Positions 3,239-54,608 of a stretch of 64,000 bases of DNA are shown in pieces. The position numbers and the translations under genes were made by a program. Within the stretch, counting starts at the first letter, position 1. Each line of letters starts with the position of its first letter. The DNA comes from Cenococcum geophilum (taxonomy: Eukaryota), in NCBI GenBank assembly GCA_050273025.1, contig CP158635.1:1302001-1366000 (forward strand). Direction: 5' to 3'. The notes under the pieces were generated by a model, which ran no database searches, had not been told where the DNA came from, and saw nothing but the letters and a program-made list of their open reading frames with translations.

Positions 3239-6200
3239 TGTCACGGAACCCTACCGCAGGGGCCTCCATAGGAGAGCCCCGTGCTCTCGCGTACACCTTA
3301 CATACAGCTTATGTCAGCTACGCGTAGGTATATCACCTCCTTACGCCCTCGACCCTTACGATCGATCGCGCAATGTCTTGTAGACTCCTCGAATACATAC
3401 GTCTTGTAGCTACTGCCCCGTCCCGTGACATTACGTTGCGCCTTTTTACCACCGATACCCAGCCTACGACTAATTCTACGTCTCTGTAATACTACAGGCG
3501 CTGCCAAAAGCAGCATGCCTATAAGTTACCTCACTTTATACTTCTAAGGAACCTATAATAGTAAGATAATATTCCTTACTAGCCATTATATTAAACCCAA
3601 AGAACAATCTAATACCTACACTTAACCTATAACGCCAATTAATCCCAGAAGAATTCGATTTATTAGCCCTAGCCTTAACCCCTAAGGAGAGGGATACTAA
3701 TAATATCTTATCTTTTATTAACTATATAACTATAGATAAGTAAGTAAAAGGGCTACTACCTATTAAAATTAAAATATAAGACGCTAAGATGTTCGCAAAA
3801 ATGGTAATATAAGAACCCGATAAATACTACCGCCTTCTATAAAACTACTACCTAAAGCTTATATAAGCCGAGATGCGTACTGCCTAAGATCGCAATATTA
3901 TCTAAGACCTATAAGCTTATGAGGCGCTTGCCGATAACACGCGTTAAAAAACTAAAGATGACCTCTACGTGTCTAAACGCGACGTCTAACAGTTAAAGAA
4001 GGCTAAGATTATACTTATTGCTACGGTTACTAAAAGAGAAGGTATAATTAAATACCTATAATCTTAGCTTAATAAGCACATTTATAATAACGCCAGACAC
4101 CTCTCTACTGCATATAACGCCACTTAAGTCTTTACGCCCTTAGTAACTTCACCTACTTAACGCTTAACGGAGGGTTAGCGCCAAGCAGCCTTACCTAATA
4201 GAAACCCCTACTAAAGTGATAATAAAAGCTATAACGACCAAACCTAAGCTGCTACCGTAGGGTCTAATATACGTTACCCTAATCCCCTAGTTTTTTAGGG
4301 AGACTGCAAAGAATATAGCCACTAAAAGATGTAAATCCGTAAGAAACTAACTTAGAGCGCCTGCCTTTTTCCTATAGAAGACACTAAGATTGGCTATATT
4401 ATTGGGCGAATAAAGGGTATACTATTTAATAGACTCTTCGCCTAATAGGAGACCAATAGCCCCTGAAAGTGGCAGTCCCACTAAGAAGTTCTTAATAATC
4501 TTAACCTAATATACCACGACTATAACCTACTAGCCACTAACCGAGCTAAACTATGTGCCCTAAAGATGAGCCCTATTAAATTATTTAATGAGTTCTATAT
4601 TAAATTCTAGGAATATACTAAAGCCCTTACCTAAGACGATACTAAAGACCAGGAAGATCTTCTTAAAAAAGTCACTTATCGCCTTAATTACGCAGCCGCT
4701 AGCCACAATTATAATAATATTTATAATATAGTAGCAGCTATATGGAAGATTAAACGACGACTAAATTAGATCGCTACTGTAAACCCCCGCCTAAAGACCT
4801 CTCTATAGAAGCCCTCCGGACCTACTAAACCACTAACGCCCACTACCCTAAGCAATACTACTAGTCCTAATATTGACCTTTCCATACTAACCTTCCCGTA
4901 GAAGCTACTAGATGGAGAACGTAAGCTACTTTAAAAGCTAAAGCGTTGCTATAGATATTATTAAGAAAGCTATTATAGCTATAGCCTAAACTACCTAATA
5001 GCTAGGTTTAGTAGCTGCCGCCTAATACCTAACCTAGTACCTTAAACACTAAATACGTTGCTATATGCCACTACCGTATAAGATAAAGACGTAGTAATAG
5101 TAGTAGAATTAGATACGGAAACGGAAAACGCTAAGTCCTAGCCCTAAGTTGTAGGTTAGGACGCCCTAATAATAAAGGGATCTATATATTGGCCTACTTA
5201 ATAAATAACTTAGTAAAAATAAATAGATGGAAATAGATAGTTTTACCTATAATAGGAACTACTGCTAAAAAATAATATAAAAGCCGTTTTATAATTAATT
5301 GCGAAGCTATTAATAAATTTATAGATACCTAATTCGTGTGTACTTATAACTTACTTACCTTACCCCTTACTAAAGCCCGCGCCCTATAACTCGTTAATAG
5401 TAGTTATACTGCACAGAAGATTACCTATATGGTATAACTCTATTTAGACATAAATAGGCACCAAAAAGAACTCTGGGCCTATATTACACCACTTGCTAAC
5501 TACCCTATTATCCTTAGAATAAACTAGCTCGAATAATACAACCCTGCCATTAACTAAAAAAAGAGAGAAGTAACTTTTAACTCTAAATACTGTAGAGAGA
5601 CCTGCCTAGGATATAGCCTAGCCGCCTTTATCTACTCCCTAGGATACCAACCTAAGGAACCCCTTATTACCCTACCTATAACTAACTGCTACTATATAAG
5701 TGCCGCGGCCTTCTACCGTATAGCACGTAGGAAAGGCTAGACTGTTACTGCAGCCTCCTAATTATAACTATATAAGCTTAATAAAGAACAGGATTACGTC
5801 CTCTATAGTAATAGGATAGATATAGTTAACCTTTTAGAAAACGATGCCCCCGTAGAACTCTACGGACTTTCACCTTTAGACTTTAAGAAGTTTATAAAGC
5901 TTAAAAAAGGACTTACTAACAAGGAACTCCGCAAGCTCCTCCCTAAAAGGTACTATAACTTTATTAACGTATACTTATAAAAGAGCGTAGATATACTCCC
6001 CCTATATTAACCTAATAACTATACCATTAATATTAAATAAGGAAAAACGCTACCCTATAAGAGACCCTACCTAATATTAAAAGATGAACTTCTAGTTATT
6101 AAAAAGTATATTAACGAATACCTTGATAAAGGGTTTATTCGCCCTAACATATCCCCAATAGCCGCCCCTATTCTCCTTATTAAGAAGCTAAAAGGAGGTA

Positions 6201-9200
6201 TTTAATTTTGCGTTAACTATAGAGGACTTAACGCTATTATGATTAAGAACTAATACCCCGTACCGCTTATACGTGAGACTCTTAAGTGGCTTAGCTAAGC
6301 TAAAATCTATACTAAGCTTAATATTATCGCCGCCTTTAACCGCCTCTAAATATAAAAAGGTAACGAATAGAAAACCGCATTCGCATCGTACTTTAGCCAA
6401 TTCAAATATACTATTATGTCCTTTAGCGTATATAACGGCCCAGGCAGCTTCTAAAGCTATATTAATAACGCCTTATGGAACTACCTTAATGACTTCTGCT
6501 CTGTGTACCTGGACGATATACTTATTTATAGTAATAACCCTTTTAAGTATACTGAGCATGTTTAAAAGGTCCTATAGCGCCTTAGGGATGTAGGACTTTA
6601 TATTAATTTAAAGAAGTGCGAATTCTTAGTTACAGAAGTAAAATACCTTAAACTAATTATTACTACTAAGGGTGTCTGTATGGACCCTAAGAAGGTACGC
6701 ATAATTACCGAATAGTAAACCCCTAACTGCATTAAAGATGTATAAGCTTTCCTTGGTTTCGCTAACTTCTATTAAAAATTTATATACAACTTCTTGGGTA
6801 TTATAGCACTATTTATAGCAATGATATAAACGAAGGGCTTTTCCGTAAAAGGAAGAAAAACATATCTACGTTTTATCTAGACGCCTAAATATAAGAAGGC
6901 GTTCTAAGACCTTAAAGATGCTTTTACTAAAGCACCTATTTTAGCTTACTTTATACTAGGACGATAACTCTATCTTAAAACTGACTCCTTAGACCACGTT
7001 AACACAGGCATCCTTTCCTAGATGGGCGATAATAGTTTCCTCTACCTAGTCGTATTCTATTTATCTAAGCTTATACTATAAGAATATAACTATAAGATCT
7101 ATAATAAGGAACTTCTCGCGATTATATAAGCGTTTAAGGAATTCTGATTGGAACTTTCCTTAGCAGAACCTGACTAGCTAACTGAAGTCCTTACGGATCA
7201 TCGCAACCTTGAGTACTTTATAACTACGAAATAGCTAAACTAACGCTAAGCACGCTGGAACGAGTTCCTCTCTAGTTTTAACTTTAAAATTATATATAGG
7301 CTAGGAGTATAAGGTACTAAGCCTAATAGCCTAATACGCCGCTTATAAGACCTTCCTTAGTCTAAAGATAACCCCTATAACTAGTTCCAATAATAGATAA
7401 TCCTAAAAGCATGGAATTTAGCCTTAGGTATATTACCTATAATAGAGCCAACTATACCTTAGCTCCATACCACAGAACTAAAATTACCTCCTGAAATTAA
7501 TAAGCTTATTACTACGGTATATAACACCTCTGTTAACCCATTACTGTATTAACTTATTGCTGTAAAGACCGCCAGCGCTTATATGCTGCCGACTAAACTC
7601 TAAAGCTTAGGCTAGATTAATATAGTAGCCTTAGAAGTAAAAGAAAATAGGCTCTATTATAGAGGCCGTCTATTTATCCCTAACTTAGAAAATCTATAAC
7701 GGTAACTAATCTAAATGGCCCACGACCTCCGATTAAGCGGCTACCTAGGTAGAGGAGGAACCTATAAGCTTTTTAGCCGATACTACTTCTGGCCTAAAAT
7801 AATAGACTTAGTTAAACGCTTTATAGGCGCCTGCTACGGTTATAAGCGCACTAAGGCCTTTAATATAAAGTACCAAGGACTACTGCACCCTCTACCAGTA
7901 CCTATACGACGATAGGCAGATATCGCTATAGATTTCGTTATTGACCTACTACCCTATAAGCAACATAGCCGTACCTATAAGAACATCCTTATAATAATAT
8001 GCCGACTTATAAAAAAGCGCCACTACGTCCTAACCAAAGGCGTAGCTATTAGTGACGTTACTAACGCCTTCCTCCGTGAAATCTACCGATTATATAGGTT
8101 ACCTAACTCGATTATATCCGACTAAGGTATATAGTTTGGCTCTAATGTATAGAGACGAATCTACTAACGCCTTGGCATCTCCGTTAAGATATCTATATCC
8201 TTCTACTACGAAACTGCTAGGTAACCGGAAAACGCTAATGCTAGTATAAAAGCGTACCTATGACAGGTAGTCGCCTATAGTTAAGATAACTGGGTAAATT
8301 ACCTCCTACTAGGTGAATTTGTAGCGAATAACTACATCTTAACTACTATAGGACTTACCCTATTCTTTGCGAATAAGAAATATTACCCCTAATCCGGTAT
8401 AGAACCACCAGAACCTATTAATAAGAAACTGCCATATAGAAAACGCCTTAAGATACTACTTACCGACTAGCATATAGACCGCATAAAAAATCTACTTAAC
8501 TACTGTAAGGGAGAAATGGCCTAGGCTTAAGCAAAGTAGGCTTACTTTGCCAATTATTATAAAACGCCACCACCGGAGATACGTGTTAGCGACTGGGTAT
8601 AGCTAGATGCACGTAATATCTCTATATAAAGGCCTATAAAGTCACTTAATTATAAGAACCTCGGCCCCTACCTAATTAAATGAGTTATTAATAGGGGAGC
8701 CGTATATAAGCTAGAGCTTCTGCCTACCCTAGCTACCCGCGGAATATAGCCTGTATTTTACCTATGGCTACTACACCTTCACTAGCCTAACCCCTTACCG
8801 GGGTAGATATAGCCTAAACCCCTACCAGTACTAATCCGAGATAAGAATGAAGACAAGAACTATAAGGAGTGGACCGTTAAACGAATTATTAACTCTAAAT
8901 ACTTTGGTAAAGGTAGAGGACGATAGCTCTACTATAGAGCTATATACACAGGATTTGATATAGATTAGCTAGAATGGCAACTATAAAAAGACTTTAAAAA
9001 TACAAAGGATCTAATTAGTGACTTTTACTACGCGAACCTATAGAAACCGGGCCTAAGTAGAGATTTTATACCTAATTCTCTATAGGAGCCCTTATAGAGC
9101 TAAACCGTTATATATTACCACGTAGGGGTAAATTGCCGTTAGATTGCCGTTAGATTATGGTAAAGTGTGATTATATAACCGGAATATCGTTAAGATGTCC

Positions 9201-9582
9201 AGGAACTTTAACCGGCGGTTAAAGTTATCTAATTGGTTAGATTCTTAGATGCCAAGCCTTATTATATAATATTGTTTTAAGCCTTTAGCAATACCCCCCT
9301 TTCTTCTTTTCTATACCCTAAGTGTCCCTTCTATATATATATAGTAACCATAGCGTCGCCGGAGCTCCGCCTTTATAGGAGGGGGGGTAGTGTCATAGAA
9401 CCCTACCGCAGGGGCCTCTATAGGAGAGCCCCGTGCTTTCGCGTACACCTCGCGTATAGCTTATGTCAGCTACGCGTAGGTATATCACCTCCTTACGCCC
9501 TCGACCCTTACGATCGATCGCGTAACGTCTTGTAGACTCCTCGAATACATACGTCTTGTAGCCACTGCCCTATCCCATAATA
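3239..9582 (+). mobile_element. Gypsy/Ty3 chromovirus LTR retrotransposon A, full length, RIPed
   Basis: 192-bp LTRs at 3239-3430 and 9391-9582, TSD TAGTT, PPT AGGAGGGGGGGTAG at 9377-9390, RT VYLDDIL at ~6503, RNase H YEIYDKELLAI-like motif at ~7090, integrase, chromodomain EWTV.RII.S at ~8866. Confidence 0.95.
5170..9100 (+). pseudogene. RIPed pol (PR-RT-RH-IN-chromodomain) of Gypsy A
   Basis: Motifs in Gypsy order; ORF-track fragment 7715-7915 (RYYFWPKI..VKRFIGAC..LHPLPVP) is the integrase zinc-finger region. Boundaries approximate. Confidence 0.85.
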
Positions 9583-11379
9583 TAGTTATAGCCCTCTATA
9601 TTCGTTAAGCCACTATATACTAATAATATCAGCACGCCTTTAATGGTGTAGGTAGGTAGTATATTAACTCTCTACTTACTATAGTTATACGGTATATATA
9701 AAATAGGTATAACTCCTACTAGTAACTAAAACGCCTTCTATATACTAGTTTTTAAATTAGCTCTAGATTTATCTATAAACACTAGCTACTTAATAGTAAA
9801 CTATAAGATATAGGCCTAGTATAAGTTACGGTCTTCCTAGCTTTACTTAAAAGCAACTCCCTAAGCCTAATATACTTAGCAGCTTCCTTATATATATAAT
9901 AAAAGCTTCCTTACTAGCTTCCTACTCTAGCTAGTAACTCTTAGTTCTGCACTAAGCGTCTACCTACTTATAATAATCTAAAATTAATCGTAAATAAACC
10001 ACGTTATTTTATCGAGATATATATTCGGGGCATTATTTAATTAGCAGAGCAATGCGACGATCGCCTTATTACTTAGCAGGCGTCTTAACTTATATATATA
10101 ATTAAGCTTTATCTTCCCGTACAGCTATAGATTCCTTTAAATAGACTAGATTAATTTAGTAGAGTAGTTGGCTTAACGGGCGCATTAATATTTAGTTGTA
10201 CCGGCTGTAAAAAGGATCTTAATAAAGGCGTGCTGCCAACTGCCCATATTTAGAGCCATATTAATAAGAGGAAGAAGCTTTAGAACACTATAATCCGGTA
10301 TAAATATCACGACTTTAATAAACAAGGGACAATAAGATCAGCTTTAAATTTAAGGTAGCTAGTGGCCTAAGCCAGGGCCACATACTACACCTCTTCCTGC
10401 TAGCTCTATATACTAATTTAGCTGTAGGCTTAGCGAAATTAGGTATATACCGCTGCGCGCGCTAGGGGGGGAGAAGCCGAAGCTCGTACAAGCTGTATAT
10501 AGAAGGGCGTCCGTTTAGTAGGATTGTCGCCAGGTCAAGCCTATTAAGGAGCTAAACGAACAGCTCTTAATTAATGAGCCAGGTCAATGTCTGAATCGCC
10601 TACAGAGGCCTAAGTAGCAGTTCTACTATCCTTCCCTTGCCGCGTAGAGGGTTAACAATTTACGAGCGTCTACGACTAGGCGTAGGAAGGCTTTTCGCAC
10701 AACCCATACTATTAATAATTAAGGCTTTATTTTCGGTAAGTGATGTCATATGATGGCGATATTTGGTTAAAAATCGTCAAAAATATGGTCAAGTCGATCG
10801 ACCTAGCCTGACAGGCAGTTGAACAGTACCCGCAGAAGTGGAGGTACTGGTAAGATTAGGCACAGTTTATCTACCAGGTGGGCGGTTTTTGCCAAAATTG
10901 CGGCTGACGCGAGGACTCCACCTGCCCAGATAGTGGCTCGACTTTTGGCTGCCAAGACCACCCACCTGGGTTACTAAATGGACGACCCCTACCCACTAAG
11001 TGGATATCGATCTGCCCGGGTGGCTTTTTTAACCGCTTACCTGGTCAATTTGACCTGGCAAGAGAAAGTTACTAAACAAGCCCTTAGGCAGACCATATAT
11101 AGAGCCTTCGGCTCCACCTCCTTTCAAAAAGGAAACGCGGGACGTTTACCACTCCTACCTTCTCTAAAGGGCTTCGCTATACCGCAATAATAGGTTTTAA
11201 TGGGTGAGTCGGCTGGGTGGCTGACTCGTATGGGGGTGGCTAATACGTTATCCCTTCGTCTAGCAAAAGAGACTTTTCGTATTGGGCGCTTTAGGCGCCC
11301 CTGCCTGGGTTAGCATGCTGCAGGCACCCTAACTAGCGTGATTTTATTGGCAAGCCTTATTACTACGGTACTAGGCATA

Positions 11380-16391: not shown

Positions 16392-17031
16392 AGCCAATCT
16401 TATTAAGCAAAATTACAGGGGTTCATTTAAAAGATGTATGGCTTCCGCAGTTCTACTAGTTAGACAAGAATATCGTAGGCTGTAAAGAAGTGGTAATACG
16501 ATCTACAAATTGCTTGGATTTTATTTGTGCAGTTATCCTTCGGCAAGGGAGATTTGGATATATACTAGAACACTTTTATAGGAACTTGAGAATAACTGGC
16601 TATAGACTATGAATAGACTTTGTAAAATATCTCTAGTGCTGAATTTTTGCTTAATTATAAGCAAAGTATCTATGGTTATATATATATAGATACAAGGAGC
16701 TTATATAACCTCCTTTGTGGAGGGTTAAGGACAATTTCTTAAATTTCTTAACGCGCTTAGACTTTAAACCCCTAAGAAGCCCGCTCCCTGTTAGCGACTT
16801 AGTCAATCGAGACATAAGCACGGCAAAAGGGTCGCGCAAGCCTGTACGATTGGATTGTCTATAAACGAGAATCTAAAGCTAGGGAAAGGAAAGAAGAAGA
16901 AGAGCAGCGCCGTTCGGTATTTTATACTATACTTTGCGAAAGTATTACAAAAATCAAATTAAGCGAGCCCCCCTGCCCGCAGACTGCTCGTTTTACAAAA
17001 TGCTTTTACAACTACCAAAAATAAGTCTTAT

Positions 17032-22702: not shown

Positions 22703-25700
22703 CTTATTCTATAAAATTAGTAAGTAAAACTATAAAATAGATACTGTTTTATAATTTTAAATATATGGCAGCTTAGGAAATAATGTGGTTGTAAAATTTT
22801 AGGTGGTAAAGCATTAGGCTAAGCGTTACCCCTCTATCAAAACAATACACCCCCTATTGCCCTACTAATACGACTCTATATTTTATAAGTAGGGATATAT
22901 TTTATAGCCCTAAAATAGGGCTATAAAATAAGCCCCTATTTATATAAATTGGAGGGGTATTAGTTGAGTTATATAGGGTACTTTATAATAGCTGTAAAAC
23001 TTAAATTAAGGCTTTGCGCTAACTAACCTAACTCCTTTACCCCTAAAAATAAGCACCCCTTATAACTCTACTAAAATGACCATAAAATATATAAATAAAG
23101 GCTTGTTTTATAGCCCTAGAATAGGGCTATAAAATATATCTTTATTTATAAAATGTAGAGCTATATTAGTAGGGCTATAGGGGGTATATTGTTTTGGTAA
23201 AGGGGGTAATGCTTAGGCCAACGCTTTACTACCTAAAACCCCACAACCACATTATTTACTAAGCTGGCATATATTTAAAATTGTAAAGCGGTATCTATTT
23301 TATAGTTTTATTTACTAATTTTATAAAATAAGACTTATTTTTAGTGGTTATAAGAGCATTTTTGTAAAACAAGTGTCTGCGGGCGGGAGGCTCGCTTAAT
23401 TTTGATTTTCGCAATACTTTCGCAAAGCATAGTAAGATCTTCGCGTCACGTGATCGCAATATGCGGCAATCTGTGGCAACTTGCCGGTGTAAAGTTCTGC
23501 CAGTTCTGCCAGTTCTACCAGTGCCGTAACATTACCCCCCCCTCTAAAAAAGCCTGCCCTTAGGCTTTGTTGCTAAAAGTCTTAATAAGAGAATCTAACT
23601 AATTAGACAACTTTAACCGCCGGTTAAAGTTCCTAGATATCTTAATACCTTATATAACTAAGAAATTTCTAGGGCGTTTTTATCCTTATATTCTTCTGGT
23701 AGCTTATTATCTTTATTATACTAGCATTCTATCTACTTGTTTAGGTACTTTAGTAGTCTGGATTTATTAGGGTAATAGCTATAGAACTTCTAAAGCTTAT
23801 AGGGACTACCTATAAAGTTCTATATAGGGTACTAAGTAGGGTCTAGGTTATATCCTTTCTAACTAATATAATACTTTAACATTCCCTTTATAAGTTTATA
23901 GGCTAGCACTTCTTTAATTTCCTATTTATTATCGCCATTAACTTAAATTAGTAGGGGAGATTTATTCTTTTATCCGGGCAGTAGGTTATTTATAGCTTTC
24001 CGTAGCTTATCTAGTAAAAAAATAGAGTAAACTTTAATTAAGTCTAGGAGCTTAACCTTATATAAATTGCTTACTTTATTAAGAATTTTATACAGTCCTG
24101 CTATCTTATAGTCTAGCTTATGGCTAGGCCGTTCTGTTTTTTAGTTCTTTATTATAACCTAGACTATATCGCCTATAGTAAAGTTAGGCTCGCGCCTATG
24201 TTTATTTACCTACTATTCTATTAACTTTTAGGCCTTTTTTAGGTTTGTATAGGCTACTTTTTAGGCTTCTTCTAAGCGCTTAGCGTACTACTAGGCTTCC
24301 TTATAAGATAGTTTTTCGCGTATAGTCTAGGGCCCTTTTAGTCTTTCCTAGTTAAAGCTTATATGGGGTAAGTAACCCATTTCTAGTTAAATAGGGGCAA
24401 ATCCGGTAGAGTTGTAGGGTAGGGTCACTTAGGCGTAGTCTATTAAGGGCAACAGTTCGGCCTAGTTATCTTAGAAGTAGTTAATAAAAGGCCGGAGTCC
24501 CCGGTCTAAGTATTAATTTATAATCTCTATTTAACCGTCTATTTAGGGGTAATATACTATAGAAAGCTTTAGCTTAATACCTAAGATTTAGGTAAACTTA
24601 TTCTAAAAGGCTAATATAAACTATAGCCTATAGTCGGATATAATAGTATCTAGTAGTCCATAAATTTGGTAGACGTAATAGATATACAGCTAGGCTACCT
24701 CTTTTATATTAATATTCTTGTAATAGGGAATTAAAAATAGGCGCTTGCTAAAGCGGTTAACTAAAATTATAACTATATTATATCCGTTACGGTCTAAAGG
24801 TAGCTTATAAAAGTCTATAGAGATATATTACTAGAGGCGGTCGGGTATTAGGAGGGGTTTTAATAGTCCTAAGGTTTTATTTTATAGAATTGTAGACCTA
24901 TAGTAGTTATTATAGTTCCGTATATAGCGGTTAATATCTATAATTATTCTAGGCTAGTAGTAGCGGTCGCTAATAATCCTGCGGGTTTTATTTTTTCTAG
25001 GGTAGGCCGTAGAGACCTAGGCATATACTTTAGTAATAAGCCAAGTCTATAAGTTCTATTCCTCTACTACTACTAGCTATTCGCGGTACTTAAGTAGTCT
25101 ACTTTTAAGGGACTATAGGCTAGAAACGTTCTTTGCCTTTTTACGGTACTTCTATAGAGAAGGGGCTGTATAGTTTGCCTATAGTAGTTTATTAATAAGG
25201 TCTAGTTCTATAGAGTTAATAGGGTATATCTCAGCATTTAAAGAGTCTGTATTTAGTTCTACCCATATTTAGGAGTTAAGGTGCTCTAGTTATAGTAGTG
25301 CTTAGGTCTATAATAAGATCTTTATAGCTATCTAGTTATTTATATTTTATTTACACCTTATAAGAGCGTCTATACGGTTAGTAGCGCCTGGCCTATATAT
25401 AATTAAAAAGTTAAATTAAGATAGGGTGTCCGCCTAGTGCGCCTATTAGGCTATAAGGGCCTTTATTATTATAAAATATTCTAAGGCCTTATAATCGGAA
25501 ACTACCTAGATAGACTTAGGGGTGCCTTCTAGTTAGGCTTACCAGTGCTAAAAGCTAGAGATAATAGCTAGCATTTCTTTGTTGTAAATTGGGTAGTTTA
25601 GCTTAGCATCTACTATAGTCTTTAAATAGTAAGCAATAGGGTGCTATTCTCCGTTTATTTGCTTTTAGGAGTAAACGCTAGCTATAATACTATCTAAGGC

Positions 25701-28700
25701 ATCGGTTTCTAGCATTAAGGGCCGCTCTAGGTTAAAGTAGGTAAGTAAGGGAGTAGAGACCAGTCATTTCTTAAGCTTATTAAAGGCCTGCCTATATACA
25801 GTATTAAAGTAAAAGGGCCGGTCCTTATGGGTAAGTAGGCTTAGTAGCTAGGTAATTCTACTATAGTTCTTAATAAAGCGTTAGTAGAAGTTATAGAACC
25901 CTAAGAATAACTATACCCCCTTTACGGTCCTTAGGGGTACCTATTAGTTAATTACGGCCGTCTTTTCTAGGTCTGCCTTAATCCTATTTATACTAATAAT
26001 AAACCCTAAGTACTTTATACGCTTAACACTAAATTCTAACTTCTTAATATTAGCTTAGAGGCTAGCTTCCTAAAGCCGTTATAGGACTTTATAGATATGC
26101 TCTTTATATTCCAGTTCGTTTTTAGAATAAATTATAATATTATCCAGGTATACTGTATAGAAGTCATTAAGGTAGTTAAATAGTACGTTATTTATATATC
26201 GTTAGTATATGGCCGGTCCGTTAGTTAGTTTAAAAGGCAGTACTTTATATTTATACGTTCCGTAATAGGTCTAAAACGTAGTAAGGTTTTCTAATTTAGG
26301 GTCTATTCTAATCTAGTAAAAAGCCTAGCAGATATTAAGTTTTATAAAGATCTTAGCTCTACTTATTTAGGCTAAAGTCTTATTAAGTAAAGGCAGTAGG
26401 TAGCGGTCTTTAAGGGTTAAATTATTAAGCTTATAGTAGTCAATACAGAAACAAAGTCCTCTATTTAGCTTTTTAGTAAAGAGAATAGGTAAGTTAAAAG
26501 GGGCTTAACTAGGCTTAATAAAGCCCTTATCTAGGTTATTAATAAGATACTACTTTATAGCCTATAATTCGGCAGTAGATTGCTATTAGAGGGGGCTATA
26601 GCTAAGGGTAACCACCTTATCCGGCTTAATTTTAATCTTATAGTTGTACGGTTGGTAAAGCGGGAGTATATTAGACGCTGCTTTAGAGAAGGTATCTTTA
26701 AATTTCTAGTATTAACGGGGTAGTTTCTATTCTACTAGCTCCTTATCTATAAGCTTACCTTTCTCTTAGGCTAGGGCTTCTTTCTTTTTAATTATTTAAT
26801 TAATTTTATATAAGCTAGTTATAAAGGTAATGGTATTAGGCTAAACTAGGTTTTAGTAGAATTCTATAACGCTAATATAGTAAATATTAACTAGCGGGAG
26901 GTCTATAGATTTCTTTACGAATGTTTATTAGGCCGTATTTTATAGTATAGGGTTTATAATCTTCCTTAGCTTACGTTCTATTTTCTACAAGTTATCCTTT
27001 TAGTTTATTAGTTTAGTATATTATCTAATATTCCTAGCCTTTCTTTATAGCTGCGTAGGGCCTAAGTTCTCTATTAGGGACTTAGCTAGGCTACTACCGA
27101 CTTCCTAAGTCTTTAGTGCGGGTAGTATAATATAGGTAGTTTAGGGGCGGTATAGTATACAGATCTATTGCGGATTAAGCTATATATCCTTCTTAAAAGC
27201 CTAATCCCTACGCGTCGCATTAGTCTAGTAAATAGTGTTTATCTACGGCCGTATAAGGTTTTCTATTATAATACTAATCTCTTTTATAAAGGAAGGCGTT
27301 AGGGGTATAGTTTTGGGCTAGATAAGCTACCTATTTTATATATTAAGCTATAAGCCTAAATAGGCTAGCTATTTTCTCCTTAAGATTATATTATAGCTTC
27401 TAAGGTCTATAATAAGGAAGGAGATATTATACTACCTTTATCCGTTAACGCGGAGGTAGATCTATAAGATAGTTATAATAGGTAATCCTATCCGTCCGTT
27501 ATAACCGCGAATAGGAACTAGTTTAGGCAGTTCTTTAAGGGGTATATTTAAAAAGTTAGCCAGTTTTACAGCGCACTTTATATTAATTAAGGTAAAGGTA
27601 TTTACTTTTAAGTTAGCTAAAGCAGAGGTTAAAACTTAATATCTATTATAAAATAAAGTATAAGGGATAGTGCAGCTTCTTTTACTAACTAGCCGACCTA
27701 GATTAATATATAATATATTAATCCCTTTTAACCCTAGAAGAAAGTCTTCCTTTAGGGTTCCTCTTTTTCTAGCTCTGTACTATCTTCCTAAATTAATAAA
27801 ACCTTATTTATCTTTACCTTTATTAGGCAGTTCCTTATAGGGTAGCCTATTTAACCGTATAAAAAGTAAGCTCCTTAATCGCTAAGGGCCTATATATAGG
27901 GGTCGCTATATATAGGCCGGGTGTATACTAAGCCCATAGTAGGGATAGCTGCGCGGCTAGCTACTGGGTTAACTATAGGAGTTGCTAATTATACTAGGGC
28001 ACTACGGGCCGTACTTATAGTATTTACGGCTTAGTTTATAAGGTTTCTAGTTTTTAGCTAGTTAGCGCGTGCCTTAATTTAATAGAGGCCTTAGTTAATA
28101 GCTAGGCAATAGTCTATAAGTTCCTTTAACGTCTATACCGTAGTATAAGCTAGTAATACGGCCCGCTATAGGTCTAGGGTAAGCTTATTAAAGAGGTCTA
28201 GTAGTAGGTCTTCCTAGGGGATCTAGGCTTATCTAGCTAGGTATAGAAAGCGGGTTTAAAAGGCTAAAAAGGTCTCTATTATTTTTATATTTAGGCTTTT
28301 ATAGCTAAGGCGGGCGTTTTATACTTTAAAAGGGTCTTTATAAATAGAAGATAAGTATTTAATTATTTCTTCTTTAGAGATAAAGGGGTCTACTAAGTCT
28401 TTAGTGTATTGTGGGCGTAAATACGTCTAGGCGTTTTCGCCAGTACGGCCGAAAATATAGGCCATTTTAGCTTGGGCGTTAGGGAAGTAGTCTACATTAA
28501 CTTTAAGCTTATCCCGTAATTAAAGCTTCTAATTATTAAATATAGGGTCGGTTCCATTTATAAGTAGCGGGGGATCCACGACCTTTGCTAACCGCTTCGG
28601 TGCTATATAGGCCTTAGTAGATCTACTAAGGCGCTAAAATAGGGCCTAAAAGACTATAGTAAGTCTTTAGTTATCTAATAATAACTTATTATTAGATATA

Positions 28701-29689
28701 GGGGTATCTCTAGCTTTAAGCAGCTCTTGTAGTTGTTTAATTTTGGTATTAGTAGCCGTAAGCTCCGCCTAGGGGATTAAAACGTTAATTATTTCTTCGT
28801 CTAAAGTATTTAAGGGTCCTACAGCTGCTTTACCTGCTGCTGTAGTTCGTGGTATAGTAGTAGGGGTATTAGGTAATTCTAGGTAATTTCTTTAGGGGTT
28901 TTAGTCTGTGTATGTCTTATAAGTTCTTTCTTTAGGGTTCTGTTCTTTTCTTTTAGGTCCTATCCTTATAGCCCTAGTAATGTCCTTAGGGTCCTATTCT
29001 ATATTCTTATAGATATATTTAAGTTCCTTCTTAGGAAGAAAGAGTAGAGTAAGCTTTAGATAATATTAGCGACTTAGTTAATTGAGATATAAGTACGGCA
29101 AAAGGGTCGCGCAAGCCTATATAATTAGATTGTTTATAAACGAGAATCTAAAGCTAGGGAAAGGAAAGGAGAAGAAGAGCAGCGCCGTTTGGTGTTTTAT
29201 AAGATCTTCGCGTCACGTGATCGCAATATACGGCAATCTGTGGCAACTTGCCGGTGTGAAGTTCTGCCAGTTTTACTAGTTCTGTTAGTACCGTAACACT
29301 CCTAGGCAAATGTTTAATATAATATCTTTCTATAGAACGCGTTAATTCCTTTATAAATTTAATTTAATATAAATAAACCTTTACAATTTTAATTAATAAA
29401 ATTGCAATCTTATAATTTAAACTATTATAAAAGTTATTTTAATTTAAAAATAAGTCTTAAAAAGGGATTTTTTACTATTAGCTCCCTGGATATTAATAAC
29501 GCTTTATAGGGTACTAGAAAATTAGCTAATAACTTATAGGATAACTAATATAAAGCCTTATCCTATTTTCTCCGCTATTTACCACCTATTTCTAGTCCTA
29601 TTACCTCTATACTTTAATCTAAACTAAACTTATAAACCTATAGATATTATCCTTATACTATATATATATATAAATAATTGTGGTATAGC

Positions 29690-30350
29690 TTAAGGTTCTT
29701 GTATAGGGGGCTAAGACGTAACTAAAAAGGCCTATCTGGATAAGATAGGTAGGTATAGCGAATTAAGCAAAAGTAGTAGTAGATAAAAGGCTTATAAGGT
29801 AAGGATATAGATAGGGAGTCCAATTAATAGAATAATAAGGTATATTATATAGATAGACAAACCCTTAAGGGAAAAGGAAGAGTCTATATATAAGGTAAGG
29901 AAGGGTTTTCCCTAAGTATATATAGCGCACATACCTTATAGGCGAGTTACTCCTAGGTTACCCTTAGGTCGCCTATACCTTATAGCTATATAACTATCTA
30001 CTTAGGTTTTACCTAATAATGCCCCCCCCTTAAAAGGATTGTCCTTAATCCTTTATATACTTAAGCCTTAATAGAACCCTATAAAAACCTTAATAAGGAA
30101 AAAAAATTAGAGGGGAAAGAATATCTTAATTTTACGTATAGAGAGATAGATAGTATATATATGCGGCGCGAAGGTATTAAGGAACTTTAACCGGCGGTTA
30201 AAGTTATCTAATTGGTTAGATTTGCCTTACTAAAAACTCTCTATATTTAATTAAGCTAATAGCGATTTTTTATCCCAGGATAGAAAATCCTAATTAGTCT
30301 ATTTAGGGCTCGCCTAAATTTAATTAATTATTAAAAATATTCTAAAAGCT
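29690..30350 (-). mobile_element. Relic 3' end (3' UTR, PPT, LTR) of another Gypsy element
   Basis: Minus-strand PPT AGGGGGGGGC at 30021-30030 preceded by hairpin AAAGGATT-AAGGAC-AATCCTTT (30033-30054). Boundaries approximate. Confidence 0.55.
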
Positions 30351-30672
30351 TACTTATCTAGGCAGGTCCCTAGTACCCTATAGGTATATTATAAGTTATT
30401 TATATATAGCTAGACTTATAGGTAGTAAGGTAGTATATCTATTAAATCTACTACTAACCCTATACTTTAGCCTTATACTATACCAGCGTAGCGCCCTATA
30501 TACTTTATAGGTAGGCTATAGGTTACTTATATATAGCTAGACTTATCCCTTGCATAGATAGCGTCCATACGTTTATAGCCCGTGCGCGACGCATAGGAAT
30601 ATTAATTTTGTTAATAGTACAAACCTCTATAAATATTATCGATTGAATAAACTACTACAATGGTTTGAAATC

Positions 30673-44000: not shown

Positions 44001-47000
44001 TTAGAATTAGGTGGATTTCTTCTAGGTTTTAGAGTTGTTATTTAACTATATTAAGGAAACTATCTATTTTAAGCTTCCTTATTATATATCTTTTACTACT
44101 TAGTTGCGCCTTAATATCCAAATCTAGCTATATTTAGATGGGGATATAGTCTAAGGCGAGTGCCTATTCTTCTTTAGGGTTATACCTTTTAAGTCTCTAG
44201 TATAGGCCTTCGTCTATAAATATAAGGTCAATTATACTTCTAGAGGTTCCTCATTGCTATATAGTTGCTCCTAGGGGGGTAGCCAACTTAAAGCCCTAGG
44301 TGTCTATAGCTCTTAGTAGGCACTTTACCTATTAATCAATAGCAATATAGATACCCCCCTACCGCGGGTAGTGGAGGTTTATATCTCCTAGTAGGATAGA
44401 CTCTATACCTTTAATTTCTAGCAAGCTTATTACTAATATAATATTCTCTATTTATAGGACCCCTTTAACCATAAGGTTATACACATTAATAATTTATACC
44501 GGTCCCCTATATATCTAAATTATTATAACTGCAATATCTAGGTTAACTGCCTGCTATAACTATAAGGATAGGCTAATAGCCTTACTAATTATAAAGCACA
44601 TATATATAGCTGCTTTTGGTTTATATAGGAGCTAGAATCCTTAGGGGCAGTATATTAATTATATATAGGTATTGTAGTACGGCTCTTATATAGTAAGGAT
44701 ATAGTATTTCTCTAGGTCTAGACCGTCTAGTAAAGGCCTTATAAGACGGTGGTTTATGTTGCCGCAGTTATACTATATAATGAATAGGTAGCGGACCCCT
44801 AGCGAGGGTCCTTCGCCTTTCCTTTGTTCCTTGCTTCTTCTATTTTTACTTTCTCTAGAATATTTAGAACTTCTGTCTCTTATATCTATACCCTAGTTAC
44901 TACTTATTTTATATAGAGCTTTCTATTCCTATATCTTGTGTTCCTACTAGCGCTTCTATATCTAAATCTATTATTATCTCCAGTTTCTTCCCTATTCTTA
45001 CTAGCTATCTATATGCCCTTTATAGGTCGGCTATAAATATTATATTTACCGCGTTAAATCTAATTCTTAATTGTCCTGGTTTTAAGCTTACTATAGCTGT
45101 CTATAGGGGTCTTCCTATAGGGCGTCCTCTCCCTTATATCCCCTATAACCCTTATATCCCTATACAGTCTAGTAATATCGCGCGGCGCCGCTTCTGGCCC
45201 ATTAAGGCTTAGGATGGCTAGCCTAGCCCCCTAGTACTAAAGGTAGGAAACGCTAGGAAGGCACCTATATCCCCCTAGCTTATTACCTGTTATTTCCATT
45301 CGTATAACCTAGCGTATAGTTATTCCCGTAGCTATTAAGCCCTTACCTTCTACCTCCTGTATTTAATACAGTCTTCTCTCTCTTACGCCTTATATATGTT
45401 ACGGCACTGGCAGAACTTGGTAGAACTTGGCAGAACTTGGTAGAACTTGACTGGCAGAACTTGGCAGAACTTGACTGGCAGAACTTGGTAGAACTTCGCG
45501 GTTACGTGACTAGAGGACCGTATAAAAGAACCCTACTTTGACCGGCGCTGCTCTTCTTCTCCTTTCCTTTCTCTAGCTTTAGATCCTTGTTTATAGACTA
45601 CCAATCGTATAGGCTTGCGCGTCCCTCTTGCCGTGCTCGTGCCTTAATTAACTGAGTCGTTAATATTATCTAAAGCTTAACTACCCTTTCTTCCTAAGAA
45701 GGAACTTAAATATATTTACGGACCACGAACCAGAACAGAACATAGAATTAGACCTAAAGAATATTACTAGAACCAGAAGAATAGAAAAGAATAATAAGAC
45801 CTATAGAATACGTATAGACTAGAACCCCTGCAGAATCCTACTAAAGGTTACCCTAATAACTATACCATGATGCCAAGAAATACAGCAGCCGGCAAAGCAG
45901 CCGTAGGACCCTTAAATACCTCCAATGGTGAAACAGTAACTGACTCGAACTCCCAAGTGGAGCTTGCAGCAGCTAATGCCGAAATTAAATAACTTTGAGA
46001 GCTGCTTAAAGCCAGAGAACCCCCTACGCCTAGCAAGGAATTATTAGACACCTAGAGACTTGCTATAGTCCTTAAGGCTCTAGCCTAATGTATAGTATTA
46101 GTATTGTTGCGGTCCGCAAAGGTCGTGGACCCCCCGTTGCTTATAGACGGAACCGACCCTACATTTAACAATTAGAAGCTTTAATTGCAGGATAAGCTTA
46201 AAGTCAATGCGGACCACTTCCCTACTACTTAGGCTAAAATGGCCTACGTCTTTGGCCGTACCGGCGGGGACGCACAGACGCACCTACGTCCGCGGTATGC
46301 ATAGGACTCGGCAGAGCCCTTCCTCTCTAAAGAAGAGATGATTATCTACCTGTCTTCTATTTATAAGGACCCCTTTAAAGTATAAAACGCCCGACTTAAT
46401 TATAAAAGCCTAAATATAAAAACGATAGAGACCTTCTCGGCCTTTTAGACCCGCTTTCTGCACCTAGCCAGCTAGGCTCGAATTCCCCAGAAAGATTTAA
46501 TGCTAGACCTATTTAATAAGCTTACCCTAGACCTATAGTAAGCCGTACTGCTAGTTTTTACTACTATATAGACGCTAAAGGAACTTACGGACTAGTGCTT
46601 AGCTATCGACTAAGGCCTCCGCCGAATTAAGGTATATGCTGAATAGTATAAAGCCAGAAACCCTTTAAATCAGACTATAAGCAATATAAGAACGGCCCGT
46701 AATGCCCCAGCACGATTGGCAACCCCCGCAGCACCACCCGTACAGCCTACCGCCAATTTAGCAGCTAGCCGTGCGGCCAGCCCTGCTATAGGTCCGGCGA
46801 ATGCTCGGCCTACGTATAGCAACCCCCGTATATAGGCCCTTAGTGATTAAGGAGCTTGCTTTTCTTGCGGATAGAAAGGTTACCGTATAAAGGATTGCCC
46901 AATAAACGCGAAAGCGGACAAGGTTCTATTAATCTAGGAGGATAGCGCGGAGTCGGAAAAAGAGGAACCCTAGAGGAAGACTCCTCTCTAGGGTTAAAAG

Positions 47001-50000
47001 GGATTAACATGTCAGATATTAATCTGGGTCGGCTAGTTAGTAGAAGAAGCTACATTATCCCTTATACTTTATTCTGTAATAGATACTAAGTTTTAACCTT
47101 TACTTTAGCTAACTTTGGAGTAAATACCTTTGCCTTAATAAATACCTAGTGTGCCATAAAGCTGGCTGACTTCCTAAATGCACCTATCAAAGAACTGCCC
47201 AAACTAATTCCTATCCGCGGGTATAATGGGCGGATAGGACCACCCATTACAACTATCTTGCGGATTCACCTCCGTGTTAACGGACGAAGGTAGTATAACG
47301 CCCCCTTTCTTATTACGGACCTAGGTAGCCACAATATAATCTTAGGGCGAAAATGGCTAGCCTATTTAGGCTTATAGCTCGACATACGGAGTAAACGGCT
47401 TACCTGGCCCAAAACCCTACCCCTAACCCCTTCCTTTATAAAAGAAATCAGCATTATAATAGAAAACCTCGTACGGCCCTAGATTAATACTATTTACTAG
47501 GCCAATGCTATGCGTAGGGACTAGGCCTTTAAGAAAGATGTACAGCTTAATTCGTAACGGATCCGTATACTACGTCGCCCCCAGACTACCTATGTTACGC
47601 CACCCGTATTAAAGACCTAGGAAGTTAGTAGTAACCCAGAAAAGCCCCCCATGGAGAGCTTAAGCCCTATGTAGCCACGAAGAACAGCAAGGGATGTCGG
47701 ACGTTACACTGAACTAATAGATTAAAGGGATAACCTGCGGAAGATGGAATAGGAGCTAAGAAAGATTATAAACCCTAGACCGCAAAATACGGTCCGGAAA
47801 ACGGCTATAAGGAAACCAGCGGACCTCCCACTAGTTAATGTCTGCTATATTAGTGCCGTAGGATTCTACTAGAACTTGGTTCAGCCTAATACCGTCGCCT
47901 TTATAACAAGCTTATACGAAATTAATTAAATAATTAAGGAAAAGGGAAACAAGCTTAGCGGACAAGAAAGCGAGCTTATAGATAAGAAACTAGTAAAACA
48001 AAAGCTGCCCTATTGATACTAGAAATTCAAGGACGTATTCTCTAAAGCAGCGTCTAATATACTTCCACCTTACCAACTATATAACTATAAGATTGAGATT
48101 AAGCAGGGCAAAGAAAACACCCTTAGCTTTAGCCCCCTCTACGAGCAGTCTATTACCAAATTATAGGCTATAAAGTAGTATCTTATTAATAACCTAAATA
48201 AGGGCTTTATTAAGCCTAGCCAAGCCCCTTTCGCCTCGCCTATTCTCTTTATTAAAAAGCCAAATAGAGGACTCCGCTTCTGCATTAACTACTATAAGCT
48301 AAATAATATAACCCGCAAGGATCGCTATCTGCTGCCTCTACTTAATAAGACTCTAGCCCGAATAAGTAGAGCTAAGGTCTTTATAAAGCTTAATATCCGC
48401 TAGGCCTTCTACCGAATTAGGATGGACCCCGGGTCTAAAGATCTTACTACGTTTTAGACCTATTACGGAACATATAAATATAAAGTGCTCCCTTTTAGAC
48501 TGACTAACGGACTAGCTACGTACCAGCGGTATATAAATAATGTACTCTTTAACTACCTTAACGATTTCTGTATGGCCTATTTGGATGATATTATAATCTA
48601 CTCTAAGAACGAGCTAGAATACGAGGAGCACGTCTATAAAGTCCTATAACGGCTCCGCGAGGCTGGCCTCTAGGTTGACATTAAGAAGTTAAAGTTTAGT
48701 GTTAAGCGTATAAAGTACCTAGGTTTTATTATTAGTATAGACGGAATTAAAACCGACCTAGAGAAAACGGCCGTAATTAACTAGTGGGTACCTTTACGGA
48801 CCGTAAAGGGGGTACAATCCTTTTTAGGGTTTTGTAACTTCTACCGACGCTTTATTAAAAACTACAGTAGGATTGCCCGGCCTCTTAACCGTCTTACTAG
48901 AAAAGACCAGCCCTTCTACTTTAACGCTATATATAGGCAGGCCTTTAATGAGCTTAAGAAACGGCTAGTATCGGCTCCCCTACTTGCCCATTTTGACCCG
49001 GAACGGCCCTTAATGCTAGAAACTGATGCCTTAAACGGCGCGATAGCTGGTGTTTTTTCCCAGAAGTAACCGGACGGAGAGTGGCACCCTATTATATACT
49101 ATTTGAAGACTATAATAGATGCCAAGCTAAATTACCACATCTATAACAAAGAAATGCTGGCTATTATCTCTAGCTTTTAGCACTGGCGTGCACAGCTAGA
49201 GGGGACCCCTAAGCCGATTAAGGTAGTTTTAGATTATAAGGCCCTAGAATACTTCATAATAACTAAGGCCCTTACGGCCCAGCAGGTACGCTAGGCGGAT
49301 ACCCTATCTTAGTTTAACTTCTTAATTATATATAGATTAGGCGCTATAAACCGTGCGGACGCTCTTATAAGGCGCGAGTAAGACCTAGATAACTAGACGG
49401 CTGCGAAGATCTTACTACGGACCTAGACGCTACTATAACCAGAATACCTTGACCCCTGGATACGGGCAGAACTAAGTATAGACTTCTTAGGCGCCGAGAT
49501 ATGTCCTATTAACTCCTCCGAACTTAACCTTATTAATAAACTACTATAGGCTAACCGAATAACCCCCTCTTTATAGGAATACTATAAAAAGGTAAAGAAC
49601 GTTACTAGCCTATAGTCCCTCGAAAACGGACTACTTAAGCACTAGGAATGGCTAGTAGTAGCTAAGGAACAGAACTTACGGACCTGGCTTATTGCCGAAG
49701 CTTATACCTAGGTCTCTACGGCCTACCCTAGAAAAAATAAGACCCGTAAGATTATTGGTAACCGCTACTACTGGCCCGGAATGGTTATAGATATTAACCG
49801 TTATATACGGAACTGCGACAGCTGCCATAGATCTATAATTCTACGAGATAAGACCCCAGGACTATTAAAACCTCTCCCGATACCCGACTGCCCCTAATAG
49901 CATATCTCTATAGACTTCTATGAGCTACCAACAGACCGCGACGGATATGATATGGTTATAATTCTAGTTAACCGCTTTAGCAAGCGCCCGTTCTTAATTC

Positions 50001-53795: not shown

Positions 53796-53945
53796 AGACC
53801 CCTTACGGAGACCCCCTACCCTTCTGCGAACCGTTACGGACCTGTTAATTACCTTTACGGACCGTTACGGAGACCTCTTACCCTTCTACAAACCACTATG
53901 GACCCGCTAACCGCCTTTACGGACCCTATAAGACCTCTACCACCC
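53796..53945 (+). repeat. ~60-bp tandem duplication in the 5' region of Copia F
   Basis: Repeated TTACGGAGACC(C/T)C(C/T)TACCCTTCT...CCTTTACGGACC units. Confidence 0.7.
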
Positions 53946-54454: not shown

Positions 54455-54608
54455 CAAGTTACGGACCATAATACCCCCGTAACCCAAATTACGGACCGTA
54501 ATACCCCTATAAACCAAAATACGGACTAAATTACCCCTGTTGTTTAAGTTACAGATCCGCAAGCTATATATCCACAAGCTATAAATCCGTAAGTTATAGA
54601 TCCGCAAC
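54455..54608 (+). repeat. 30-bp and 15-bp tandem repeats within Copia F gag
   Basis: CAAATTACGGACC(A/G)TAATACCCC units, then (A/G)ATCCGCAAG(C/T)TATA units; unit lengths preserve the frame. Confidence 0.7.

Follow-up and report, generated by a model that had tools for sequence, protein, structure and literature searches.

A palindromic cassette common to the non-coding ends of Gypsy and Copia retrotransposons in one fungal lineage

The usual view of long terminal repeat (LTR) retrotransposon families is that each forms its own lineage, with non-coding ends that evolve independently. How, then, do three Gypsy elements with dissimilar LTRs come to hold the same palindromic stretch? The question is raised by 64,000 nucleotides of the Cenococcum geophilum genome (assembly GCA_050273025.1, contig CP158635.1, positions 1,302,001 to 1,366,000 of the forward strand), a nest of LTR elements altered by repeat-induced point mutation (RIP) and referred to here as the window. 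A degenerate 43-mer matches the window exactly at 9201-9243 (+), 23592-23634 (-) and 30180-30222 (+), as an original prediction made from the letters had claimed, and none of 100 dinucleotide-preserving shuffles held any match to it. The sequence comparisons described below make it very probable that the 43-mer belongs to a cassette passed between unrelated lineages, five of Gypsy and two of Copia, by recombination in the segment formed by the 3' untranslated region (UTR), the polypurine tract (PPT) and U3. The cassette, whose single copies are called modules here, multiplies only as cargo of its host LTR elements, in one RIP-affected ascomycete lineage.

The cassette and its copies in the window

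Adjacent palindromes make up a composite of approximately 70 nt, with the 43-mer as its core: a left arm, a 23-nt odd palindrome (P1), a hairpin (P2) that holds ATTGG, and TGCCAAGA. With the RIP changes reversed, the cassette reads ..AGATGTCAAGG / AACTTCGACCG-S-CGGTCGAAGTT / GTCTGATTGGTCAGATT / n / TGCCAAGA. The order of units in 27 natural copies from all lineages is ..AGAT.T..AGG, P1, P2 (TCTGA-TTGG-TCAGA) plus T, two to eight variable bases, and TGCCAAGA. P1, the odd palindrome that had been predicted, is present in all three window copies (9204-9226, 23609-23631 and 30183-30205), and these copies differ from one another at two positions, both G/A and of RIP type. A covariance model of the 81-nt unit recovered the three copies only, the remaining hits in the window being reverse-strand echoes of P1 or having E>1. 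The modules, their hosts and a second palindrome are as follows.

9188..9268, + strand: module copy 1, sense-oriented within the 3' UTR of its host, Gypsy element A (covariance model 91.6 bits, E 2.9e-17); left arm 9190-9203, P1 9204-9226, hairpin P2 9228-9241, GCCAAG 9252-9257
23568..23647, - strand: module copy 2, sense-oriented within the 3' UTR of its host, Gypsy element B (88.6 bits)
30167..30247, + strand: module copy 3, in the remnant of a - strand C-family Gypsy element, antisense to its host (83.9 bits)
3239..9583, + strand: element A, Gypsy (chromovirus-like), host of copy 1, with LTRs at 3239-3431 and 9391-9583
23433..29298, - strand: element B, Gypsy, host of copy 2, with its 5' LTR from about 29298 down to 29060
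29793..30545, - strand: 3' end remnant of a C-family Gypsy element, host of copy 3, with an LTR at 29793-30018 and a reverse-strand PPT at 30020-30031
30263..30290: second palindrome, Pal-2 (GATTTTyyATCCC..GGATrGAAAATC), found with a looser pattern

Element A encodes RVT_1, RNase H and Integrase_H2C2 domains in frame 3 of 3434-9388, and copy 1 lies about 130 nt past its pol end and about 135 nt before a PPT-like G run (about 9376-9387). The pol of element B is on the - strand (26762-24549), with a PPT at 23545-23535, about 46 nt downstream of copy 2 on the same strand; the 3' LTR of this element is split by a nested insertion, its first 99 nt lying at 23531-23433 and the rest at 16926-16791. 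The C-family remnant (about 750 nt) lacks pol, and its 3' UTR fragment, which extends up to 30545, holds both copy 3 and the second palindrome. A G run lies 150 nt from copy 3 on the opposite strand (C run 30022-30029), which places copy 3 in antisense relative to its host element. The predicted distance of about 45-150 bp between module and Gypsy PPT was thus found at all three copies, with the qualification that the PPT of copy 3 is on the other strand. The unit 29793-30545 matches four loci from the metagenomes described below (L016, L022, L032 and L035). In the fuller family members L032, L035 and L022, reverse transcriptase and integrase are encoded on the strand opposite the module, and a reverse-strand PPT lies 150 nt from P1 and is followed by the LTR.

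Self-comparison of the window by blastn detected no mutual similarity among the LTRs of the three hosts. The claim that host LTRs and surrounding UTR are unrelated therefore stands for the LTRs; it does not hold for the immediate flanks, as the copies remain similar for about 15 nt beyond the left end of the 43-mer and about 25 nt beyond its right end. The P2 loop of copy 1 is TTGG, which gives CCAAT on the opposite strand. Un-RIPed copies have ATTGG in the P2 loop, as do window copies 1 and 3; in copy 2 RIP has changed it to ATTAG.

Conservation ends abruptly at the borders of the unit. Among 27 sequences from eight lineages, 18 of the 23 columns of P1 are invariant, four show transitions only and one, the centre, shows a transversion; the P2 region has transversions in two of 17 columns, and transversions occur in each of the columns that border the unit (1-4 and 72-85). 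Covariance-model scores over 0.5 Mb of loci are bimodal, with 81 hits at or above 64 bits and none between 34 and 64, and four additional copies found by the model are RIP-eroded. Both results show that the cassette is a discrete and very uniform entity.

Carriers of the cassette and evidence for exchange

Metagenomes were scanned with the pattern AACTTYRACCGGCGGTYRAAGTT, which gave at least 124 stretches, including 80 loci with 4-kb flanks; all metagenome counts given here are among the matches listed. Orientation by P2 was assigned to 113 modules, or 111 after omission of L015, which overlaps L014, and P2 is truncated in four loci (L025, L076, L079 and L081). Clustered by upstream flank, the at least 111 copies fall into eight lineages, five of them Ty3/Gypsy clades, two Ty1/Copia lineages and one (j) assigned to neither superfamily. 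The lineages are given below with their number of copies and the position of pol and PPT in those copies whose upstream flank is 1 kb or longer.

A/g/m, Gypsy: 37 copies; same-strand Gypsy pol ending within 1 kb upstream in 13/24, G-run PPT within 400 nt downstream in 23/24
e/l, Gypsy: 22 copies; same-strand pol within 1 kb upstream in 15/16; G-run PPT by a simple pattern in 0/15, the LTR apparently starting 30-45 nt past the module
d, Gypsy: 11 copies; same-strand pol within 1 kb upstream in 6/7, G-run PPT within 400 nt downstream in 6/7
B/h, Gypsy: 8 copies; same-strand pol within 1 kb upstream in 2/4, G-run PPT within 400 nt downstream in 3/4
C, Gypsy: 8 copies; reverse-strand PPT upstream in 4/4, opposite-strand pol downstream in 3/4
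Copia-1: 10 copies; pol end exactly 44 nt upstream of the module in 6/6
f (Copia-2): 11 copies; module inside an LTR of about 205 nt (TGTTAAA..CCAACA)
j: 4 copies

In most lineages the module is found after the pol stop and before the PPT. Six of the eight lineages have it upstream of the PPT, and its distance from the PPT ranges from 35 to 317 nt. Five lineages carry it in sense orientation and two, the C family and Copia-2 (in the LTR), in antisense. The original prediction had described a feature of Gypsy 3' UTRs; this proved too narrow, as the module also occurs in Copia elements, inside an LTR and in antisense, copy 3 included.

Copia-1 was identified through homologues with PF07727 (RVT_2), PF00665 and PF13976. 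In nine loci the alignment of the closest of these, P0001, takes in its last residue and stops exactly 44 nt short of P1; Pfam scans of the RIPed Copia-1 pol gave no match, probably owing to RIP. Seven Copia-1 copies (L025, L040, L076, L079, L091, L098 and L100) lack about 39 nt that include the PPT-like run, between ..TTAGATTCT and ..CATTCTGCAG, a short direct repeat. Either a PPT-less form has multiplied or the G run is not a real PPT. As for Copia-2, the LTR of L074 is followed by a Copia open reading frame (RVT_2, E 1.2e-33) on the strand opposite the module, and other copies have a PPT-like AAGGGAGGG before the LTR on that same strand, so that the module is antisense inside a Copia LTR.

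Several lineages have the cassette extended to 100-190 nt, with a CACGTG-type palindrome upstream and the second long palindrome downstream. Pal-2 has the form GGATTTTCCATCCC-n-GGGATGGAAAATCC, and is found 69-130 nt downstream of P1 in at least 49 modules from five clusters, in two orientations relative to the module; a strict Pal-2 pattern with up to three mismatches had no match in the window. P1 and Pal-2 are both within the UTR in g, d and C. A PPT-like run and an apparent LTR start lie between them in Copia-1 and e/l, so that Pal-2 is seemingly inside the LTR (the Copia-1 LTR start is apparent only, as the loci examined contain no 5' LTR of Copia-1).

The hosts of the cassette have little else in common. 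Approximately 4 kb of internal sequence upstream of the module aligns between pairs of Gypsy clades over only 55-671 nt at 65-78%, and Copia-1 and Gypsy B align over only 26 nt, which are part of a shared block. This block is about 100 nt long and has abrupt borders, running from CCCTA (the last pol codons) to AAGACTTTT; the pol C-termini of both elements are ..LEIS, followed by the stop, and both pol and the sequence on either side of the block differ between them. Copia-1, e/l and g have in common a stretch of 160-190 nt at 69-73% that runs on to Pal-2. The length of the shared block thus varies with the pair of lineages (about 70, 100 or 170-190 nt).

A comparison within one Gypsy clade is offered by a sister of element B in the window.

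45396..51391, + strand: element B2, Gypsy, sister of B, module-less (78% identity to B over 5.5 kb)

B and B2 align without a break as far as ..GCCCTA at the pol stop, and again from about 30 nt before the PPT onwards; the interval holds about 105 nt in B, including the module, and about 18 nt in B2 (51061-51080). The module-less junction of B2 type is also found in L023, L073 and L078, and the module-bearing junction of B type in L031 and L120. The covariance model found no module in B2 or in the elements D, E and F of the window. Exchange of a cis-module between families, which had been predicted from the window alone, is in good agreement with these data: the carriers comprise five Gypsy clades and two Copia lineages, the shared block has sharp borders, and a sister lineage is module-less. 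The non-coding tails of these elements thus appear to be traded between families and not just inherited. Six B-related loci of lineage h (L061, L065, L075, L097, L103 and L117) have directly upstream of the module a stretch ..CTGCCAGTACCGTAA.., which looks like the reverse complement of a B-type LTR start and may be another mosaic junction.

The single base at the centre of P1 provides a further view of this traffic. Read relative to P2, 63 of the 113 listed modules have G there and 50 have C (L015 duplicates included; the scan pattern restricted the centre to G or C), and both states occur in five of the six large clusters. Of the other G/C columns, only 1-25% in each cluster show a G/C difference. 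On trees of the flanks built without P1, the centre changes at least four times among 35 rows (7-10 times in shuffles) and at least three times among 22 rows (4-5 in shuffles). Since there are fewer changes than in shuffles and still at least three or four on the trees, the centre state appears to be mostly inherited yet repeatedly switched. This could be due to the palindrome inverting or to carriers exchanging the module, also between sense and antisense ones. No A or T centre turned up when the metagenome loci were searched with a relaxed pattern, a search of low power. A G/C switch at the palindrome centre would be a clean natural marker of inversion or of ongoing exchange between families.

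Abundance was compared through summed Logan contig depth over 9100-9400, where P1 exceeds the flanks of element A 5-15x in three organisms: 2.5 million versus 0.09-0.67 million in X1, 113-121 thousand versus 2-24 thousand in X5, and 3.8-4.1 thousand versus 0.09-0.69 thousand in X13. Such depth does not equal copy number, and a better-conserved stretch passes the 90% filter more easily. Loose ends of Logan contigs reveal further recurrent contexts, and the differing flanks in these contigs are direct evidence of other hosts.

The same 23-mer scan pattern had no match in a collection of prokaryote genomes. Nine metagenome loci (group i: L021, L034, L038, L043, L063, L092, L096, L111 and L123) were excluded from all counts, as the common part is the 23-mer only. 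They come from other metagenomes and another organism and contain a repeat with the exact 23-mer 15 nt from its end, a TTA/TAA target duplication and the terminus GGGCCCGTTTCACCA, followed by the start of an open reading frame, which would fit the end of a PIF/Harbinger-like transposon. The identity of the 23-mer may not be due to chance, given the absence of prokaryote matches; no link between this repeat and the fungal module was found.

Readings of the cassette

The favoured explanation is that the cassette works through its structure as a nucleic acid, within the 3' part of the genomic RNA or of the complementary DNA (cDNA). The simplest route of transfer would be for reverse transcriptase to switch templates, from one co-packaged RNA to another, where the two have a short homology (CCCTA at the pol stop, or the PPT, for instance). 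P1 is self-complementary and the same in either orientation, so that any two carrier RNAs could pair through a 22-bp duplex; such pairing would favour co-packaging and further template switching, which in turn would keep the cassette identical across families, mix the G and C centre variants and leave the 3' UTRs mosaic. This reading is favoured because all positions seen (3' UTR in either orientation, or LTR) are consistent with the 3' part of the genomic RNA, because the palindromes form the same hairpins in either orientation, and because pairing through P1 would explain the uniform cassette, the circulating G/C centre and the mosaic tails. Taken whole, as an exchanged cassette together with a pairing mechanism at the RNA or cDNA level, the statement is tentative and somewhat likelier to fail in a part than to hold throughout.

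Predicted structures provide part of the basis for this reading. The RNA of an un-RIPed copy (L052) folds into a three-way junction at -33.3 kcal/mol (z = -5.0), and its opposite strand folds comparably (z = -4.6); folds of RIPed window copies are unremarkable (z = -0.4 and -1.4). The P1 hairpin has a predicted energy of -12.9 kcal/mol, and the P1 homodimer -36.8 kcal/mol, versus -25.8 for two hairpins. A closing stem CAAGG/CCUUG of the L052 fold was considered as a general feature and set aside, being present in j, C and d, replaced by CCAGG/CUUGG in A, and absent from B, e, h, f and g.

Other roles were considered. Cyclisation of the genomic RNA through pairing of the module with the 5' UTR was no better than with shuffled modules: for RIPed copies and their own 400-nt 5' UTR, the duplex energy was equalled by shuffles in 47/200 cases for A and 18/200 for B. 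A Helitron 3' end (hairpin plus CTRR) does not fit, as the sequence after CTGA is conserved in all lineages, and a mimic of the LTR-LTR circle junction would require a CA|TG centre, which is absent. As to a tRNA-like origin or complementarity to a tRNA, ARAGORN found no tRNA genes in the 0.6 Mb examined and none at the module.

Several points weigh against the RNA- or cDNA-level reading. No compensatory changes were found for any helix, 8 of 10 P1 pairs being invariant and the rest showing RIP-type transitions; covariation values were often reached by shuffles, and the sequences are too alike for the test to speak. Non-stem sequence is conserved as well (the loop TTGG, and GCCAAGA), and the motifs ATTGG, CCG-N-CGG and CACGTG resemble protein-binding DNA. 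The LTR pairs of B2-type elements are about as alike as others (93%), and the module therefore seems dispensable for transposition. The reading would require Gypsy and Copia particles to take up each other's RNA, which they are not known to do. Among the matches listed, most loci come from three related metagenomes, probably of the same fungus or close kin, and so do not count separately as evidence of taxonomic breadth; lineage j and one A-like copy have three other sources. The RNA-seq run X24 gave two reads on 9100-9400 and thus no evidence either way. P1 is also placed otherwise than known dimerisation palindromes, which lie in the 5' leader or gag and are exposed in loops, as far as the account in PMC11381356 goes.

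A bolder version of the favoured explanation would make the cassette a public cis-signal, that is, a self-complementary RNA element that enables pairing and co-packaging of RNAs across families, even between Gypsy and Copia. This version is improbable on present evidence. If it were true, it would be the first replication signal shared across superfamilies of LTR retrotransposons, would imply a recombination network that trades and homogenises the 3' UTR, the PPT and the U3 start across families, and would explain the concerted evolution of their tails.

The best surviving alternative places the function at the DNA level, and it is possible, if clearly a minority view. Here the cassette would be a set of dimeric sites for host transcription factors, serving as an orientation-independent enhancer or upstream activating sequence in or near U3, so that elements acquiring it would be better expressed. 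By their consensus motifs, ATTGG/CCAAT would be bound by a CCAAT-binding complex, CCG-N-CGG by a zinc-cluster protein and the nearby CACGTG by a basic helix-loop-helix protein. P2 contains TGATTGGT, whose reverse strand GACCAATCAG is taken to fit the CCAAT-box consensus including its flanks, and Pal-2 is flanked by CCAATTAGG / CCTAATTGG in un-RIPed copies, with ATTGG/CCAAT at both its ends. In A, g, d, j and Copia-1 a CACGTG or TACGTA palindrome is found at 20-35 nt from the module; such palindromes also occur inside the Copia-2 LTR, where the order CACGTG, CCAAT, P1 and TATATAG box in the direction of the element makes this reading attractive. It could also accommodate the occurrence of both orientations and the conservation of unpaired positions as much as of paired ones, and sharing across superfamilies would be easiest if the partner were a host factor. 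However, in six of eight lineages the module is upstream of the PPT and is never copied to the 5' LTR, so that it cannot sit upstream of the promoter of the genomic RNA; only in Copia-2 is the CCAAT pentamer of P2 inside an LTR upstream of a TATA-like box, and with this box no more than about 50 nt away from the LTR end, R-U5 would be very short. Moreover, a transcription-factor site needs neither a perfect 23-nt palindrome nor hairpin arms around CCAAT.

That the cassette has no function at all is unlikely. It would then be a passenger in the 3' UTR-PPT-U3 segment, a part tolerant of foreign sequence and prone to template switching, and would have been spread by chance recombination and drift of master copies, and its palindromes would reflect their origin by snap-back or strand-switch synthesis instead of selection. 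Such a passenger would be in keeping with the transposition of module-less B2-type elements, with the multiplication of PPT-lacking Copia-1 variants at seven loci, and with the variable orientation and PPT distance noted above, as well as with borders at microhomologies and the lack of observed covariation. Yet at least seven lineages from two superfamilies each kept the same cassette, P1 has 5-15x the depth of the flanks of one host, and the cassette is free of non-RIP decay where all surroundings differ. Neutral fixation on so many occasions would demand very frequent recombination between families.

The two remaining readings are very improbable. A tiny autonomous-like mobile element, of foldback type or similar to a miniature inverted-repeat transposable element, inserting itself into retrotransposon tails would suit the indel relative to B2, the two orientations and the loosely inverted ends (TCTTG..CAAGG versus CCTTG.CAAGA in L052), but this idea, raised in the original prediction as a hitch-hiking element, is largely refuted by the absence of private flanks on both sides in any of the 111 listed copies (all in multi-copy host lineages, as are the three window copies, and none outside LTR-element lineages), by the lack of consistent target-site duplications (18 nt of B2 are replaced by about 105 nt in B with no duplication) and by the inconstant length of the shared block. 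Vertical descent from one ancestral element under strong constraint, for which the broadly similar position near the PPT in most lineages could speak, appears already contradicted by the sharp-bordered Gypsy/Copia block, by carriers in both superfamilies next to a module-less sister lineage, by the varying position and orientation relative to PPT and LTR, and by a P1 that is free of transversions outside its centre in clades whose pol sequences align so poorly; descent is not simply vertical.

Neighbouring features and known systems

The window contains three further module-less LTR elements.

31442-37611, - strand: element D, Gypsy
53243-59449: element E, Copia (tblastn with P0001: 54002-58930, 34%)
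17032-22700: element F, LTR element

The insert that splits the 3' LTR of element B (window 16791-23434) is 6.5 kb long and has inverted ends of about 116 nt (16925-17040 versus 23434-23318, 87%); it includes the LTR pair 17032-17170 / 22562-22700 and a tandem repeat at 22199-22527. A piggyBac-type transposase remnant is found at 30852-31441 (DDE_Tnp_1_7, E 3e-12) and 38224-38361, apparently split by insertion of element D; the match of the second part is weak (E 0.0052, 16.6 bits, under the Pfam gathering cutoff). Only three open frames of at least 150 amino acids are present in the window. Two of them, of 185 and 312 amino acids, lie in a GC-richer island at 14968-16391 with FAD_binding_4 (E 3.6e-17) and are probably a host gene for an oxidase linked to flavin adenine dinucleotide, with an intron or frameshift between them. 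The third is at 62586-63092.

The cassette bears on how LTR elements are classified and on what they depend on. It is nearly identical in at least seven lineages of two superfamilies within one fungal lineage, and classing LTR elements by their 3' UTR or LTR start can therefore mislead annotation. If it is a pairing or packaging signal or a platform for a host factor, it would point to a shared dependency, on a host protein or an RNA-RNA contact, that can be tested directly.

The original prediction did not recognise the module as a described element, and nothing found since contradicts this. Rfam had no match in the window at the gathering threshold, and for L052, L120 and L082 at E up to 10 there were two weak hits, neither of them on the module. 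No description of the module was found in the literature, where the extended-CHS supplement of PMC5445492, possibly bearing on the likeness discussed next, was not compared.

The nearest described thing is the Conserved Hairpin Site (CHS) found in GalEa Copia elements of Pezizomycotina, a site of 33-62 nt directly after the 5' LTR that replaces the primer binding site (Donnart et al., 2017; PMC5445492). Its first part, CHSeq1, has the sequence CTGATCAGT/CTAATTAGT, which forms a palindrome together with the final A of the LTR, and CHSeq2 follows 12-41 nt further on; an extended CHS is conserved between distant families within species, and in that account CHS is described only for GalEa Copia (PMC5445492). 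Both CHS, as presented there, and the module are short, hairpin-forming, non-coding palindromes of Pezizomycotina LTR elements, and the CHS palindrome resembles the P2 arms (TCTGA..TCAGA) and the Pal-2 ends. The module differs from CHS, on that description, in being at the 3' end, common to Gypsy, present in both orientations and of other sequence; it lies 44 nt past the Copia-1 pol end or in a Gypsy 3' UTR and is thus not a member of the GalEa sites. A CHS of GalEa type does occur in the window right after the 5' LTR of element E, as A|CTGATTAGT at 53509-53518 and then ..AGATCAG.. (53509-53535).

Dimerisation palindromes of retroelements offer a second comparison. The HIV-1 dimerisation initiation site, PAL1 and PAL2 of Ty1 and PAL6 of Ty3 are palindromes of 6 nt situated at the 5' end, in many cases within a hairpin loop, and are element-specific (Andrzejewska-Romanowska et al., 2024; PMC11381356). 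P1 is likewise self-complementary and, with the predicted homodimer energy given above, could pair two genomic RNAs. Unlike the palindromes in that report, P1 has 23 nt, forms a stem, lies at the 3' end and is found in many families.

A 3' UTR stem-loop recognised by reverse transcriptase is shared by short interspersed nuclear elements and their partner long interspersed nuclear elements (PMC5135761). There, too, unrelated elements have the same 3' stem-loop as a cis-signal for replication; the elements of that source are non-LTR and target-primed, and the sharing is between parasite and helper, whereas autonomous elements of two superfamilies are concerned here.

The position of the module has parallels among retroviruses. 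The constitutive transport element of Mason-Pfizer monkey virus and the direct repeats and XSR enhancer of Rous sarcoma virus are 3' non-coding elements between the last gene and the PPT or U3. Like the module, they lie upstream of PPT/U3, and they are structured or protein-binding, as the module may be; they differ from it in being confined to one virus lineage each and using vertebrate host factors, with no likeness in sequence, and Rfam, which includes such families, had no match to the module.

For the exchange itself, the closest parallel is template switching. In recombinant retroviruses, parts are exchanged while co-packaged RNAs are being reverse-transcribed. That retroelements exchange parts is thus known; a small non-coding cassette that is near-identical in two superfamilies is not known to have been described previously. 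Chimeric and complex LTR retrotransposons have been built by template switching (Sabot and Schulman, 2007; PMC1950507), and the likeness, as far as that account extends, is that parts are swapped between co-packaged RNAs with junctions at short homologies. The chimeras described there concern one superfamily and large segments, such as LTRs and internal domains, whereas the module is small, non-coding, common to Gypsy and Copia and nearly identical in both.

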